From a virus (Duplodnaviria > Heunggongvirae > Uroviricota > Caudoviricetes): a stretch of 10,347 nucleotides of DNA. Made by a program: the position numbers and the translations under genes. The notes beneath the pieces were generated by a model. The model saw only the letters and a program-made list of their open reading frames with translations, did no database searches and was not told where the DNA came from. Where the stretch lies: the IMG/VR virus record IMGVR_UViG_3300032250_000269, positions 89,069 through 99,415 of that record. One strand, written 5' to 3'. Shown piece after piece: positions 10-10,329 of this stretch; the first letter of the stretch is position 1; the number at the start of each line of letters is the position of its first letter.

Positions 10-627
10 ATGCCCACGGGATACACCGCTGATATTGAAAATGATATTTCGTTTGAAGATTTTATTCTAGGATGTGCACGTGCTTTTGGTGCAACAATGC
101 ATCAGCGTGACGATAACATGAAGGATAAGCCAAAGCTTCGTGACACTGAGAACAGCTATCATGTTGATGCACTTTTAGAAGCAAAGAAGAAGGTTGCTGA
201 GCTTGAATCCATGAAGGGTGTGAATGATCGCACTGCTTATGGTAAGAAGGTCATTGAAGAAGAAACTGCTTCAAGTCAAAAATATTTCAACTCAAAGATC
301 AGCCTAAGAAACAAGTATGAAGCTATGCTTCAGAAAGCATATAGCTGGAATCCACCAACACCCGATCATGACAATCTCAAGCAGTTTATGATTGAACAAA
401 TCACCTCATCAATCAACTTCGATTGCGACACCAAGTATACTATGGAACGTCTTACTGAGCTTAGCAAGGCTAAGCCCCTTGATAAGTATAATGATGATTT
501 GCGCCTTGCATACAAGGATGTAGAGTATCATGAGACTGAACTTATGAAAGAACGTGAACGTAATGTAGGTGCCAATAAGTGGATTTCTGCACTATATGAT
601 TCGCTAGGAATTGAATACGATAATTAA
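10..627 (+). CDS. Phage hypothetical protein (205 aa)
   Basis: Long ORF ending TAA. The N-terminus MPTGYTA..I....F..F...CARAFGA resembles a recurring phage hypothetical family, but I cannot assign a function. Confidence 0.8.
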
Positions 628-637
628 TGGAGAGTGT

Positions 638-1519
638 ATGAAAGGCATTATCATGGCCGCTGGTAACGGGACAAGGTTGTATCCCGCTACTCTAAGCATT
701 TCAAAACAACTACTTCCGGTATATGATAAGCCAATGATCTATTACCCGCTTGCTACACTCATGCAAGCGGGTATTAGTGATATTCTAATCATCGTCATGC
801 CACGTGACAAGATTGCATTCCAGAACCTTCTAGGTGATGGTTCGCAGTATGGTATTAAGATCACATATGCAGAACAAGAAATTCCTGCTGGTATTGCTGA
901 AGCATTTTTGATTGGCGAAGAGTTTATTGGAGGTGATGATGTTGCCTTGATTCTTGGTGATAATATTTACCATGGTAATGGGCTATGGGATAAGTTACAA
1001 ACTGCCCGTTGTTTTCCTCTTGGTAAATCAACCGTGTTTGCTTATCATGTTGATGATCCAGAACGCTATGGTGTTGTTGGTTTTGACAAAAAAGGTCGCC
1101 CAAACTCTATCGTTGAGAAGCCATCAAAGCCTAAGTCAAATTGGGCTGTAACTGGTCTGTACTTCTACACCAATGATGTTGTAGATATCGCAAAATCGAT
1201 TGAACCTTCTGCTCGTGGTGAGCTTGAAATTACAGATGTTAATCAAATTTTCCTTGATTATTCACAATTGCGTGTAGAAAAGCTTGGATATGGTTATGCA
1301 TGGCTTGATACTGGAACACACGAAAGTCTTTTGGAAGCTAGCTCGTTCGTTGGTACGATTGAACGTAGGCAAGGAATGAAGATTGCTTGTCTTGAAGAAA
1401 TTGCTTACAATAATGGATGGATGAGCCAAGAACAAGTAATTCAACGTGCCCAAATGTTCATCAAGACTGATTATGGCGCATATCTAATGAAGAAAGTAAA
1501 TCAAAATGACTTCTTTTGA
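638..1519 (+). CDS. rmlA: Glucose-1-phosphate thymidylyltransferase (293 aa)
   Basis: Motifs [54 protein letters not shown] and [17 protein letters not shown] 638 follows GGAG at 629-632 and is preferred over the upstream TTG 611 in the ORF track. Confidence 0.96.
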
Positions 1520-2036
1520 ACGTATGAACATACCAGATGTAATTAAAATTATCCCTGATCAACATGTAGATAATAGAGGTATATTCTCTGAAGTATATGT
1601 TGATCATCTCACCATGCCTCGTTGGTTTCAGGATAATCAGAGTATTTCATATAAGGCTGGTACAGTTCGTGGTCTTCATTATCAACGTGGAGTATACGCA
1701 CAGGCAAAGTTGGTTCGTTGTGTATATGGATCAATTATTGATGTTGCAGTTGATATTCGTCCAGACTCGCCAACATATGGAAAACATGTTGCAGAAATTC
1801 TGTCATCGGTTAATGGTTCTCAGCTATTAATTCCAAAAGGATTTGCTCACGGATTTATGACATTGACAGATAATGCTATTGTATTATATAAGGTAGATAA
1901 TGTCTATCATAAGGATAGCGAAGCGGCCATTCGCTGGAATGATCCTGACTTGGATATTGGATGGAACTATCTAAAGGCAACAGCAATCTCTGATAAGGAT
2001 GCAGCCGCACCATTTTTCAAGGATATCATACTATGA
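1506..2036 (+). CDS. rmlC: dTDP-4-dehydrorhamnose 3,5-epimerase
   Basis: Cupin RmlC motifs [22 protein letters not shown] (catalytic His), [31 protein letters not shown] and IRWNDP. Overlaps the rmlA stop. Confidence 0.96.
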
Positions 2037-3052
2037 TTAAATATAAGTTTTTAGTTACTGGTGGTGCTGGTTTTATTGGTTCTGCTGTATGTCGTATGCT
2101 TATTGAGCAAGGACATTATGTTGTATGCTATGACAAACTAACATATGCTGGTAATATGAATTCACTTCGTAGTATTGCAGAAAATGAAAGATTTCATTTT
2201 GTTCATGGCGATATTTCTAACGAAAATCTTGTTGCCGAAACACTCAACAAGTATGAGATTGATATATGCATGAACTTGGCTGCTGAAAGTCATGTTGATC
2301 GTTCAATCGACAATCCATTTGCTTTCATCGATACTAATGTATTTGGCACATATAAGCTTCTTGAAGCATGTTTGAATTATTGGAAGTATAGAAACAATAT
2401 TTTTGTTTTTCATCATATTTCAACTGATGAAGTATTTGGCGATCTACCATTTGACAATAGCGTATTCACAGAAACCACTGCATATGCTCCTAGTTCACCA
2501 TATTCTGCTTCTAAGGCTTCTTCTGACCACTTTGTAAGAGCATGGCACGAAACATATGGCCTTCCTGTTATAGTAACAAACTGTTCAAATAACTATGGAC
2601 CATATCACTTTCCTGAGAAGCTTATACCATTAACAATTCTTAATGCTTTGCAACAAAAACCACTTCCTGTATATGGAAATGGTGGTAATGTTCGTGATTG
2701 GCTTTATGTGTATGATCATGCAAGAGCACTTATTTTAGTAGCAACTGAAGGTGTAATTGGTCATACATATTGCATCGGTGGTCGTGAGGAACGTACTAAT
2801 ATACAGGTGGTAGAAGCCATTTGTGATATTGTTGATTATCATATAGGCAATCCTCTTGAAAGTCGTCATCTTATTACTTTTGTAAAGGATAGGCCCGGTC
2901 ATGATCGTCGTTATGCTATTGATCCTTCAAAGATTGAACATGATCTTGGTTGGAAGGCACAGGAAACATTTGATAGTGGTTTAGAAAAGACTGTGCTATG
3001 GTACATTCAAAATAAATGGTGGTGGTCGCAAATTGAGACCTCAAATAAGTGA
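2033..3052 (+). CDS. rmlB: dTDP-glucose 4,6-dehydratase
   Basis: Rossmann [40 protein letters not shown] (YxxxK), [14 protein letters not shown] and [16 protein letters not shown] overlap with rmlC. Confidence 0.96.
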
Positions 3053-3058
3053 GGTATT

Positions 3059-3382
3059 ATGTCTCTTTTAGATTTTATTGAAACAGACGATGATGATCCT
3101 ATGGTAAATGCAGTACAGTCGTTATCTGAAAAGATTCGTCAACGCCGTATTCAAATGTTGGTTCATTCATATATTTACTATCATATGGATGACAATGTTG
3201 TCAGTGATGATAAGTGGCAACAATGGGCTGATGAGCTTGTAGAACTACAAAAGCGTAAGCAAACCATAGGGTTTTATGATAAAGCCTTTATAGATTGGAC
3301 AGGAGCATCAGGTGCTTTCTTACCTTTTGATCCATGGGTGAAAGAAAGAGCAAAAAACCTCTTGACCAAAAAAGAATCATAA
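3059..3382 (+). CDS. Stand-alone protein resembling NAD-dependent DNA ligase N-terminal domain Ia
   Basis: IRQRRIQMLVHSYIYYHMDDNVVSDDKWQQWADELVELQ matches the LigA Ia pattern (H..YY..D.P.ISD..YD.L..EL..LE). No adenylation KxDG motif. SD GAGG at 3051-3054. Confidence 0.65.
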   Translation: MSLLDFIETDDDDPMVNAVQSLSEKIRQRRIQMLVHSYIYYHMDDNVVSDDKWQQWADELVELQKRKQTIGFYDKAFIDWTGASGAFLPFDPWVKERAKNLLTKKES

Positions 3383-4296: not shown

Positions 4297-5343
4297 ATGA
4301 TTAAGTTTCCTAGCGTAGATCAGTTTCGTAACGTGATTCGTCACGTACAGACGCATACACGTTATGCTGGTAAGGATGAGAACGGTGAAGCAATTTATGA
4401 TGCTTCTCGCCCACTTCCTACACTGAAGTTTCGTGGCACTGTAAAGCTTCATGGTACTAATGCTGGTATCGTGTATGATAATGCGACTGATTCAATCACG
4501 TATCAGTCACGTGAGCGTGTGTTGTCACTTACTCAAGACAACGCTGGCTTCATGCTGAACATGATGAACCATGAAGATAAGCTTCTCAAGGCATTTCGCA
4601 CCATGGCTTTTAATCACACTCCCGATCTTGATAAGATTGCGGTGTTTGGTGAGTGGTGTGGACAGGGAATTCAAAAGGGAGTTGCTGTAAGCGAACTTCC
4701 TAAGATGTTTGTTGTATTTGCTATCAAGTTTACATTCACTGATGGTTATTTTGAGTGGGTTGACATTGAAGGCGATGAGATTGAAGGTACAACAATCCCT
4801 AACATGTTTTACATCGATGATTTTCCAACATGGGAAATTGATGTTGACTTCAAGTATCCTGAGATTGCTCAGAACGAGATGATCAAGATCACTGAAGCGG
4901 TCGAAGCTGAATGTCCTGTTGGTAAGCACTTTGGTGTTTCTGGTATTGGTGAAGGTGTTGTATGGGCCTGTATCAGTGAAGGATGGGAGGATAACTCTGG
5001 AACTTGGTTCAAGGTCAAGGGTGAGAAGCATTCTGTTTCAAAGGTGAAGACACTTGCTGCCGTTGACATTGAAGCTGTCGAAAACATGCGTGAGTTTGTT
5101 AAGAGTGTGGTAACTGAAGCACGACTTGAACAAGGTCTTGACAACCTAGTACGTGAGCAGCTAAAGCCTTTTGAAATGACAAGCATGGGTGACTTCATTC
5201 GTTGGATATACAACGATGTACTCAAGGAAGAAATGGACACTATCATCGCTAACCAAATCGATCCTAAAAAGCTGGGTGGCGCTGTTGCTAACGAAGCACG
5301 TCCTTGGTTCATCAAGAAGTTTAATGAAGGTGTAGGTCTTTAA
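4297..5343 (+). CDS. rnl2: RNA ligase, Rnl2 family (348 aa)
   Basis: Nucleotidyltransferase motifs: I KLHGTN (Rnl2-type KxHGxN), III FGEWCG, IIIa VFAI, IV GEGVVW, V FKVK. SD AAAGG upstream. Confidence 0.85.
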   Translation: MIKFPSVDQFRNVIRHVQTHTRYAGKDENGEAIYDASRPLPTLKFRGTVKLHGTNAGIVYDNATDSITYQSRERVLSLTQDNAGFMLNMMNHEDKLLKAFRTMAFNHTPDLDKIAVFGEWCGQGIQKGVAVSELPKMFVVFAIKFTFTDGYFEWVDIEGDEIEGTTIPNMFYIDDFPTWEIDVDFKYPEIAQNEMIKITEAVEAECPVGKHFGVSGIGEGVVWACISEGWEDNSGTWFKVKGEKHSVSKVKTLAAVDIEAVENMREFVKSVVTEARLEQGLDNLVREQLKPFEMTSMGDFIRWIYNDVLKEEMDTIIANQIDPKKLGGAVANEARPWFIKKFNEGVGL

Positions 5344-5534: not shown

Positions 5535-5610
5535 GCTCTCTTAGCTCAGTGGTTAGAGTAAGACTCTCTAAAAGTCATGGTCGTGGGTTCGAATCCCACA
5601 GAGAGCACCA
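5535..5610 (+). tRNA. Amber suppressor tRNA, anticodon CUA
   Basis: Acceptor stem GCTCTCT/AGAGAGC, A73 and encoded CCA (5608-5610). D arm GCTC-AGTGGTTA-GAGT. Anticodon stem (A)GACT/AGTC(A) with loop CT-CTA-AA (anticodon 5568-5570). Short variable loop TGGTC. T arm GTGGG-TTCGAAT-CCCAC. Confidence 0.93.
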
Positions 5611-6421: not shown

Positions 6422-6793
6422 ATGAGACATTACGCATACTTTTTCACTCGCCAAGATATTTCTCCTGAATATCAAGTAGTACAGACAGCACATGCCGCAT
6501 TCCAGCTTGGGGTAAACTCCCAACGCTGGATTGACTCTCCACCACCAAAACAGCAAGTGATGGATGATGTTAAGGCTGAGAACACCAACTACTTCACTGT
6601 AGTTGGTGTTCGCAATCTTGACGCACTTCTTGCTGTGTCTACAATCCTTGACAAGTTTAATTTCAAGTATGAAGTTTTTCGTGAGGATGATCTTAACGGA
6701 GAACCAACTTCGATTGCAGTATATCCTATCGAAGATATTGCTAGAGGACCACTACTAGCATTTAACCTTCTCAAGATCGATAAAAAGAGTTGA
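6422..6793 (+). CDS. Peptidyl-tRNA hydrolase type II (Pth2)-like protein
   Basis: PTH2-family pattern: YFFTRQDIS..YQVVQTAHAA (cf. vvRxDL....xAQxxHA), central VVGV, then VFREDDL..EPTSIAVYP and a C-terminal R....LL. Confidence 0.7.
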   Translation: MRHYAYFFTRQDISPEYQVVQTAHAAFQLGVNSQRWIDSPPPKQQVMDDVKAENTNYFTVVGVRNLDALLAVSTILDKFNFKYEVFREDDLNGEPTSIAVYPIEDIARGPLLAFNLLKIDKKS

Positions 6794-6810
6794 CTTGAGA
6801 AGCGAATCAT

Positions 6811-6818
6811 ACTAAATA
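6811..6818 (+). promoter_or_regulatory. Late-promoter variant ACTAAATA directly upstream of the tmRNA gene
   Basis: 6/8 match to TATAAATA, located immediately before the first paired segment of the tmRNA precursor. Confidence 0.5.
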
Positions 6819-6820
6819 GA

Positions 6821-7136
6821 GTTATCAGTTGTTGACAATCAACAATAAAGGTCTAGAGGACACGGGGGCAGTACCCGTCACCTCCACCATCTACTTAGTA
6901 AGAACTGAGAGGGTATCTCAGACAAGCAATGTAGCTAATTGTTTCGGGGGTTACTTGCTAGGTAGTTGATGGGGGTGAACTAGGATCGACTTGGACGGAA
7001 TAGGAAGATCGAGACTGATTGACTGGCAAAGTGCCACAAAACGTAAATGCAAACGATAACAACGCATATGGAGCTTTTGCGCTAGCCGCATAAGTAATCG
7101 GGGGTCCGGTGGGTACCTAGCAACAGAAACCCACCA
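6821..7136 (+). ncRNA. ssrA: Circularly permuted two-piece tmRNA, alphaproteobacterial type
   Basis: Acceptor piece about 6821-6889 has T arm ACGGG-GGCAGTA-CCCGT and ends CACCTCC-A-CCA. Intervening segment 6890-6970. Coding piece begins GGGGGTG (6971-6977), giving an acceptor stem with G3:U70 alanine identity, followed by AACTAGGATCGAC. Resume context TAAAT-GCA. Tag ANDNNAYGAFALAA* at 7049-7093. Terminal hairpin GGTGGGT/ACCCACC (7108-7135). The pieces pair via TTGGAC/GTCTAG and ACTGAT/ATCAGT. Confidence 0.95.
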
Positions 7137-7160
7137 CTTTATTATGGGATGTGATTTGAC

Positions 7161-7625
7161 ATGAAACCTTATTTTGTTGGTATGGGATTTATTCCTATTT
7201 TGATCTTTGCACATTTTTTTATGCCACCATGGTTCTTTATGATAGTAGCATTTTCTATGCTATTCTTTTTTTGTCAGATGGCGGCTAATCATAAAGAACC
7301 AGTATTTGAGTGGCCTGAATTGTCGTTTTCTCAAAATGACAAAACTATCATCCTTACCATGTCAACCAAAGATGGTAAGAGTATTGATAGATATCTTTCT
7401 ATCAACCGCCTTAACCTTCCTAAAACAGTTGTTGAAAAGACCGTAGAAAAAACCACATCATCTATCTGGCACGTGCTTGGTATGATGCCTACGACTGATA
7501 GGAACGCTGTAGAGAAGGCATTTCGTAAAATGTCTATGGTATATCATCCTGATACTGGTGGTACGACTAGTGCTTTTAATGCGCTTGTGGAAGCAAAAGA
7601 AAAGGCACTACAGAAGTGTAGGTAA
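7161..7625 (+). CDS. Membrane-anchored J-domain (DnaJ-like) protein
   Basis: Hydrophobic N-terminus (about residues 4-37). C-terminal WHVLG...AFRKMSMVYHPDTGG...FNALVEAKEKAL carries the HPD motif. Confidence 0.85.
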   Translation: MKPYFVGMGFIPILIFAHFFMPPWFFMIVAFSMLFFFCQMAANHKEPVFEWPELSFSQNDKTIILTMSTKDGKSIDRYLSINRLNLPKTVVEKTVEKTTSSIWHVLGMMPTTDRNAVEKAFRKMSMVYHPDTGGTTSAFNALVEAKEKALQKCR

Positions 7626-9491: not shown

Positions 9492-9494
9492 TTG

Positions 9495-9737
9495 ATGAGT
9501 GAATTAAAGTTAGCCAAAGCGATTAATACAGACAGATTTTTTAAAGAAATTGATTCTTTAGTTAAGAAACATAGACTGAGTTATATTGACGCTATAGTCT
9601 TTTTCTGTGAAAAGAACGAGATTGAAATAGAAACCGCTGCTGCAATGATCGCTGGCAACTATAGAATGAAGTCATCACTACAAACAGAAGGCGAAGAGCT
9701 TCATTTTCTGCCAAGGTCTGCTAAGCTTCCTATCTAA
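9495..9737 (+). CDS. gp33: T4 gp33-like late transcription co-activator
   Basis: F..EID..V......YIDAIVFFCEKNEIEIE...L...E.EELHFL....KLPI pattern. Conserved 33-59 gene order. SD GAGGA at 9484-9488. Confidence 0.88.
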   Translation: MSELKLAKAINTDRFFKEIDSLVKKHRLSYIDAIVFFCEKNEIEIETAAAMIAGNYRMKSSLQTEGEELHFLPRSAKLPI

Positions 9738-9753
9738 CTAATAGGATTATATT

Positions 9754-10329
9754 ATGACTGGTTTTGAAGCCTACAAGATGTACTTGGGGATTAAGTCGCA
9801 CTTCGCCAATAATACTTATAGTTATGTAAAATATCAAGGTAATGTTAGAGCAAACGAGCATTCGTTTAATAAAAGAAATGATAGATATTTCTTTGAAAAA
9901 TTATCAAAACAACCCGATCTATTGAACTTTCTTGTTGCAAATTTTCTAGAAGGTGATATATGGGTACGTGATTTGTTCAATGACGAATCACAAGAAAGAT
10001 ATGCTAACTGGCAACGAAGAGTTCAGTCATTATCATATAACTTTCAAAATGAGCTATCCCAAATCTCTGAAGATTTTAAAGGCTATTTTGTTGTCAATAG
10101 CGGACAACACCCAAAACTACTAAAACAATTTCGTCATGGTAATATCAGCATTGAAACGCTGACTATTCTTAATGACCTAATCAACTTCTTCCCATATTGG
10201 GATAAGAAGATTTCAGACAATATCATTTGGCCAAAAACCAGAGACAAATGTCTGAATTACAGTGAGTTTATCAAATATGATAAATCTAAAATGAAGAAGA
10301 TTATCAAAGATATACTTGCTGATCAGTAA
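9754..10329 (+). CDS. gp59: T4 gp59-like helicase loader
   Basis: MTGFEAYKMYLGIKSHF...YSYVKYQG, F.KRNDRYFFEKLS and ISIETL.IL...F.YWDK.I patterns. Follows gp33. Confidence 0.92.
   Translation: MTGFEAYKMYLGIKSHFANNTYSYVKYQGNVRANEHSFNKRNDRYFFEKLSKQPDLLNFLVANFLEGDIWVRDLFNDESQERYANWQRRVQSLSYNFQNELSQISEDFKGYFVVNSGQHPKLLKQFRHGNISIETLTILNDLINFFPYWDKKISDNIIWPKTRDKCLNYSEFIKYDKSKMKKIIKDILADQ

Follow-up and report, generated by a model that had tools for sequence, protein, structure and literature searches.

A permuted two-piece tmRNA gene in an uncultured freshwater T4-like phage, probably transcribed from a host-type promoter

An uncultured T4-like freshwater phage, represented in IMG/VR by a 99.4-kb virus contig with 37.9% G+C, carries a gene for a permuted, two-piece tmRNA (ssrA). 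We consider it probable (about 0.72) that this RNA is functional, that it would be expressed early through the host sigma factor, and that it would work with partners supplied by the host. The gene lies in the final 10.3 kb of the contig, a stretch of 10,347 nucleotides that we refer to as the window; all coordinates are window positions on the + strand unless stated otherwise. The contig, with a CheckV completeness of 56%, contains 29 tRNA genes and one tmRNA. We regard the phage as T4-like because it encodes gp59, gp33 and, elsewhere in the contig, a B-family DNA polymerase, a gp41-like helicase, RnlA and a Dda-like helicase; NrdA was also found there. The PF07068 (Gp23) profile gave no match in the contig, and its control also matched nowhere.

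ARAGORN detected a permuted tmRNA at 6796-7184 with the tag peptide ANDNNAYGAFALAA. The Rfam model of alpha_tmRNA (RF01849) matched positions 6791-7138 over its whole length with 120.2 bits (E 5.2e-33, for a gathering score of 50), and that of tmRNA_permuted (RF04321) matched 6827-7093, again over the full model, with 104.9 bits (cut-off 47). At laxer thresholds the alpha model remained the top member of its clan. The Rfam matches at E values up to 1 comprised tmRNA, tRNA and two chance-level matches, with no riboswitch or other RNA family in or beside the gene. An earlier reading made from the letters alone, without database searches (the sequence-only reading), had proposed a permuted tmRNA of the alphaproteobacterial type at 6821-7136. 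The ARAGORN and Rfam results confirm the permuted tmRNA, and the type is supported by the model score, the T loop, the style of the tag and the 3' motif. The details given in that reading (the gene order, an 81-nt spacer, G3:U70, the GGCAGUA T loop and a 12-bp closing stem) can all be found in the sequence.

In the permuted order, the T arm, the 3' acceptor strand and the CCA come before the 5' acceptor strand and the tag frame, within a probable precursor running from about 6825 to 7138-7146, near the span first proposed. The acceptor piece, of around 65 nt (6825-6889), was delimited with Rfam alignments, RNAalifold covariation and slid-partner controls, and its 5' end was estimated from the promoter. 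It comprises P2 strands (6825-6843 and 6851-6858), the T arm ACGGG/GGCAGUA/CCCGU (6862-6878), the 3' acceptor strand (6879-6885), the discriminator A73 (6886) and an encoded CCA (6887-6889). It is followed by an intervening segment of exactly 81 nt (6890-6970; RNAfold -24.8 kcal/mol), expected to be removed on maturation. RNAfold recovered the stem that closes this segment, CTACTTAGTAAG at 6891-6902 with CTTGCTAGGTAG at 6954-6965 (12 bp, two of them G-U pairs), and an inner hairpin occupies 6905-6921. In the phage clade described below, the spacers measure 64-155 nt and no member has an ORF longer than 24 aa in it. The coding piece, of around 170 nt (6971-7140, with an estimated 3' end), was defined with ARAGORN, Rfam, RNAalifold and the slid-partner controls. 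It opens with the 5' acceptor strand GGGGGUG (6971-6977) and continues with P2 strands (6990-6996 and 7004-7018), a pre-tag hairpin (7025-7035) and the tag frame called by ARAGORN (7049-7093), which goes from the resume codon GCA at 7049 to the stop TAA at 7091-7093. It ends in a terminal hairpin, GGUGGG/CCCACC (7108-7135), which has the alpha-type loop motif ACCUAGCAACAGAA and matches the 3' end of the RF01849 model. The elements of alanine identity are all present: an acceptor stem of 7 bp, the pair G3 (6973):U70 (6883) and A73.

The 20-mer that opens the coding piece was found in 115 IMG/VR stretches, and ARAGORN called permuted tmRNAs in more than 70 of the fetched loci, with 36 distinct tags. 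Fourteen phage relatives align across the whole gene, with about 70-79% identity to the window. In the alignment of these 15 phage sequences, RNAalifold predicted 55 pairs, 18 of them with compensatory double changes. The acceptor stem is invariant, with G3:U70 in 15 out of 15 sequences, and the closing pair of the T arm is G-C in eight sequences and A-U in seven. Compensatory changes affect eight of ten pairs in the spacer-closing stem, though the sequence of the spacer is not conserved, and double changes affect six of eight pairs in the 3' hairpin, whose loop ACCUNGNAACAGAA is nearly invariant. P2 joins the 5' end of the acceptor piece to the GACUGA stretch of the coding piece, with one compensatory change (in L013) in its support. 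As a control, we moved the 3' partner of each helix by 1-3 columns: the true helices were 96-100% paired, compared with 9-60% for the shifted ones. The tag frame is intact in every clade member called by ARAGORN, with synonymous differences among relatives, and the tag ends in AA plus stop in every ARAGORN-called relative (LAA in the clade of the window), while its centre differs widely among close relatives (NAYGAF, SSVEF, DSFADIR, DVAF). On this comparative evidence, selection has preserved the helices and the tag frame throughout a clade of uncultured T4-like phages.

The tmRNA is situated in the early/replication region of the genome, upstream of gp33 and gp59, from which it is separated by four ORFs and a cell-wall hydrolase gene. 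The homologue of gp33, the late-transcription coactivator, lies at 9492-9737 (phrog_254, E 1.7e-14), and the gp59 helicase loader follows directly at 9754-10329, with both Pfam halves matched (PF08993 and PF08994). Immediately 3' of the tmRNA, an ORF of 154 aa (7161-7625) gives a weak C-terminal DnaJ (J-domain) match, slightly below the cut-off (PF00226, 27.4 bits vs 27.8); among the fetched loci, we found this ORF only in the window and in its syntenic relative L063. A tRNA with anticodon CUA (an amber suppressor, labelled 'Pyl' by ARAGORN) lies intact at 5535-5610, with 68.8 bits for the Rfam tRNA model, 1.2 kb upstream of the tmRNA and separate from the main tRNA cluster of the contig. Further upstream, we identified an Rnl2-type RNA ligase (4297-5343) and a stand-alone Nlig-Ia domain protein (3059-3382), the NAD+-binding, DNA-ligase-like N-terminal domain. 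The Nlig-Ia gene is immediately upstream of the tmRNA in relatives L019, L039, L100, L113 and L050, so the window has about 3.4 kb of extra genes between the two. Besides, three consecutive genes of the dTDP-rhamnose pathway (611-3052), encoding an RmlA-like nucleotidyltransferase, an RmlC epimerase and an RmlB-type dehydratase, suggest sugar modification by the phage. Judged by the Rnl2 ligase, the closest cultured phage is Caulobacter phage Cr30 (58.5% identity), in which the alpha_tmRNA model gave no match.

Regarding its expression, the gene is preceded by a -35 hexamer, TTGACT (6790-6795), and by a -10-like hexamer, TAAATA (6813-6818), separated by a 17-nt spacer (6796-6812) that contains a CGAATC box, and hence GANTC, at 6803-6808. 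The -35 hexamer overlaps the end of the upstream ORF 6422-6793, whose TGA stop occupies 6791-6793. Its TTGAC is retained by 11 of the 15 aligned relatives, two more have degenerate versions, and the CGAATC box is conserved in L063. The whole promoter (6790-6818) falls just outside the span of the sequence-only reading. TAAATA coincides with TATAAT at three of six positions and lacks the final T, and the site was missed by a consensus promoter scan, whose rule calls for T as the final base of the -10. The cassette has 17 other occurrences in the contig, all on the + strand. From the 38 CGAATC sequences of that strand, 20 lie in TTGAC-N17 spacers, at 18 distinct sites including the tmRNA, while none of the 16 on the - strand does. 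A -10 that lacks the final T is found in many of these cassettes (TATAAG, TATAAA, TAAAAG), so by the standards of the family TAAATA, for all its poor agreement with TATAAT, is not unusual. The tmRNA site thus combines TTGAC(N), a 17-nt spacer with CGAATC, a TA-rich -10 and the + strand, as in the sigma-70-type cassettes. By this form, the gene is probably under host-sigma, early-type control, its early timing being suggested by the sigma-70-like architecture. A second site of the kind, TTGACG-N17-TAAATA, with the same octamer formed by TAAATA and the two bases before it (ACTAAATA), occurs outside the window at contig positions 37985-38013 (G000:C1), and hints at a small sub-class among the host-type promoters of this phage.

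One could argue that the gene is driven by a T4-type late promoter, dependent on gp55/gp33, either only late or early plus late, which would keep ribosomes free during the bulk synthesis of structural proteins. Late control was the proposal of the sequence-only reading, which had noticed ACTAAATA just upstream of the gene; the octamer is indeed there, at 6811-6818. The phage does have a late system, as judged by its gp33 homologue and by the strand bias of TATAAATA boxes (12 on the + strand vs one on the - strand). Together with eight AATAAATA and five GATAAATA, these amount to 25 late-type boxes, [T/A/G]ATAAATA, on the + strand of the contig, mostly intergenic, and most of them are 20-40 nt ahead of a ribosome-binding site and start codon. 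A perfect TATAAATA stands at the aligned position in four relatives (L105, L050, L059 and L055) and in phage Melnitz, L074 has CATAAATA there without a -35, and the late promoters of Aeromonas phage Aeh1 have the consensus (A/G)CTAAATA (PMC2988020). However, position 2 is A in each of the 25 late-type boxes, and TTGAC is missing from their -35 region, whereas ACTAAATA has C at position 2 and TTGACT 17 nt upstream. Two of the four copies of ACTAAATA on the + strand of the contig follow TTGAC by 17 nt, and the tmRNA site has the CGAATC box in its spacer, as do 17 other sigma-70-type cassettes. Among the 15 aligned sequences, seven have TATATATA, and no late box, at the -10 region, and ACTAAATA appears in the window and L063. 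The octamer is therefore better read as part of TTGACT-N17-TAAATA, and the claim of late control gives way; a late or dual contribution to expression in the window is unlikely. In several relatives, and in Melnitz, the -35 and a perfect TATAAATA occur together at the homologous place, an arrangement that may allow both early and late firing. Outside the window, a perfect TATAAATA box also occupies the gap between tRNA-Leu (CAA) and tRNA-Cys (contig positions 84213-84220, G000:C1), and could be either a late promoter within the tRNA cluster or a chance match.

Under the host-sigma reading, the host RNA polymerase with its primary sigma factor would start at the cassette and produce a precursor of about 320 nt. 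Host RNase P would cut 5' of G6971 and host 3' trimming would expose the CCA at 6889, so that the 81-nt stem-closed spacer would be discarded, and pairing in P2 and in the 7-bp acceptor stem would hold the two pieces together. The RNA would be charged by host AlaRS via G3:U70 and A73, and host SmpB and EF-Tu would deliver it to ribosomes stalled on mRNAs that are broken or lack a stop codon, where translation would resume at GCA 7049 and add the tag. A tag ending in ALAA is the usual ClpXP degron. The set of partners (SmpB, RNase P, AlaRS, EF-Tu and ClpXP) is that of known trans-translation. The use of host SmpB is suggested by the phage sequences: the PF01668 profile found no SmpB in the 99.4-kb contig, itself incomplete, or in the records of five relatives, all fragments and one of them 79% complete. 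This extends to the whole contig the lack of smpB that had been pointed out for the window. SmpB, RNase P and AlaRS of the host are thus the likely partners of the phage tmRNA. The likely benefit is that ribosomes would be kept free while host mRNAs, and some phage mRNAs, are cut during infection, which fits the neighboring genes for RNA repair and translation, namely Rnl2, the 29 tRNAs and the suppressor tRNA.

Alternatively, the phage tmRNA could act as a competitor that takes SmpB from the host tmRNA, imposing a tag chosen by the phage, or that counteracts host tagging. A similar role has been suggested for Sphingobium phage Lacusarx (PMC5648845), a tmRNA of phage DS6A consisting only of the tRNA-like domain inhibits the host tmRNA (PMC4131195), and in a phage that lacks SmpB both RNAs must share that of the host; the variable tag centre would also suit this role. 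But the tag retains the ANDN start and ALAA end typical of alphaproteobacterial degradation tags, and the full mRNA-like domain and resume context are conserved, resembling ordinary trans-translation and not a decoy. We find competition a very improbable explanation. That the gene is a passive, functionless remnant, a host ssrA fragment or attachment-site copy left by imprecise excision, is hardly credible: ssrA is a frequent site of prophage integration, and prophages often carry pieces of the gene (a point also made in PMC9004378), but here the gene is complete, its helices show compensatory changes and its tag frame is intact across 21 distinct phage sequences, its position beside gp33-gp59 is retained, and among the bacterial sequences searched no match is longer than about 60 nt. 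By all appearances, then, this tmRNA is a working gene and not a relic.

In the search for its origin, we retrieved 99 bacterial genome stretches with the exact 20-mer, mostly from Pelagibacteraceae, and these share with the window only short stretches, 22-47 nt long, of the tRNA-like domain. When 401 evenly sampled Alphaproteobacteria were searched, BLAST scored no higher than 57 bits, compared with 250-265 bits for the phage relatives. We therefore discarded a recent bacterial donor among the 99 holders of the 20-mer and the 401 Alphaproteobacteria, where no match went beyond about 60 nt. The only holder of the 20-mer not labelled as a proteobacterium was L162 (JBDUCS010000167.1), an 8.5-kb contig binned to a Gemmatimonadaceae MAG; it may belong to a phage or an alphaproteobacterium and have been mis-binned. 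Ranked by global pairwise score, the 24 tmRNAs closest to the window all come from phages. In a tree of 180 permuted tmRNAs, built quickly by maximum likelihood, the window fell on a long branch within a phage-only clade of 21 that had full support; this clade is nested in a phage-only group of 42 (support 82), and another 18 phage tmRNAs nest within Pelagibacteraceae. The phage-only status of the clade is provisional, given a biased and very incomplete sampling of bacteria. In at least 25 loci, the tmRNA is followed on the same strand by a SleB-like hydrolase and then by gp59, with gp33 placed between the last two in the window. The order shared by the window, its relatives and Melnitz makes this position common to distant aquatic T4-like phages. 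Taken together with the phage-only neighbors and clade, it indicates that any capture was ancient and that the gene has evolved since within phages. Capture from an alphaproteobacterial host, as suggested by the sequence-only reading, agrees with the alpha-type RNA, while its recent version does not agree with the phage-borne neighbors and the phage-only clade.

Among the closest known systems are the tmRNAs of Melnitz, a phage of Methylophilales OM43, and of related pelagimyophage contigs (PMC9004378). Buchholz et al. 2022 (PMC9004378) described a two-piece ssrA in Melnitz, placed behind an early promoter, and found permuted tmRNAs in 17 of 47 contigs related to it. They also counted 402 tmRNA-bearing phages, 53 of them with two-piece tmRNAs, among 18,146 genomes, and the tmRNA database lists 79 phage sequences (PMC11915505). 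The notion that tmRNAs are uncommon in phages thus holds for cultured phages, with a tmRNA in 2.3% of genomes (PMC9004378), but not for aquatic T4-like contigs, given the 115 stretches with the 20-mer. tmRNAs have also been reported in phages of Sphingobium and Caulobacter. Like the window, Melnitz is an aquatic T4-like myophage with a permuted alpha-type SsrA (gene 86, MZ577097.1, 45984-46436), located upstream of gp33 and gp59 in the order SsrA-gp33-gp59, with gp32 further on. The tags are similar in style (ANDNYVPVDYALAA in Melnitz vs ANDNNAYGAFALAA), both promoters have a TTGAC -35 placed 17 nt before the -10 region, and no phage SmpB has been reported or found in either. They differ in that BLAST similarity is restricted to 33 nt of the tRNA-like domain, with 91% identity; in that the -10 of Melnitz is a perfect TATAAATA, in contrast to ACTAAATA plus the CGAATC box; in the glutamine riboswitch reported in the 3' part of the Melnitz ssrA, in contrast to the window, where no Rfam family other than tRNA and tmRNA matched above chance level; and in the four ORFs and hydrolase gene that separate tmRNA from gp33 in the window. 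Unlike Melnitz, the clade of the window is known solely from uncultured contigs.

The two-piece tmRNA encoded by ssrA of Caulobacter crescentus was reportedly described by Keiler, Shapiro and Williams in 2000. The alphaproteobacterial form (RF01849) shares with the window the permuted order, G3:U70, the T loop GGCNGUA, an ANDN...AA tag and the 3' loop motif GGCAACAGAA. The RNA of the window is shorter: model positions of about 59-82 and 190-197 (the outer P2 helices) are deleted in the alignment, and the element between the stop codon and the 3' hairpin (about 277-318) is also absent. The bacterial tmRNAs searched can be aligned to the window only in the tRNA-like domain or the 3' motif. Within the phage collection, the only record matched by the whole window gene in BLAST was Rhodobacter phage RcSimone-Hastad (L003), which has a permuted alpha_tmRNA with 97.7 bits for RF01849 (MW677525.1, 32147-32537, minus strand), with the tag ANDNVRMDAQALAA, in a gap without any annotated feature. 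The match amounts to 76% identity over only 114 nt, its 63-kb genome is of another type, and its tmRNA falls outside the clade of 21 in the tree. In Erythrobacter phage vB_EliS-L02, an unannotated 34-nt stretch (OL955261.1, 75799-75832) matches the tRNA-like domain with 88% identity, and may be part of another unannotated phage tmRNA.

Two-piece tmRNAs of phages had already been published, at the same genome position in related aquatic phages (PMC9004378), and the general picture of phage tmRNAs is unchanged by our findings. They add a well-supported freshwater example to those known in marine T4-like phages, and go slightly beyond the published work in three respects: the sizeable phage-only clade, in which the gene is not a recent copy of any bacterial ssrA searched; the gp33-gp59-adjacent position common to the window and Melnitz; and a promoter that belongs to the phage's family of host-type cassettes and not to its late promoters. 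As a tentative proposal, less likely to be right than wrong, aquatic T4-like myophages may have long inherited ssrA vertically instead of capturing it repeatedly from hosts. The gene would be fixed beside gp33-gp59 and would evolve as a phage-only lineage, with a trimmed architecture and a fast-changing tag centre. The dual promoter of its ancestors (TTGACA-N17-TATAAATA, the form found in Melnitz and many relatives) would have been remodelled, in this sub-lineage, into the GANTC-box cassette. If so, a tmRNA supply that was 'early plus late' would have become an early one, driven by host sigma and possibly sensitive to methylation. Were the phage cultured, it would offer a small, natural two-piece tmRNA in which to study why phages supplement ribosome rescue.
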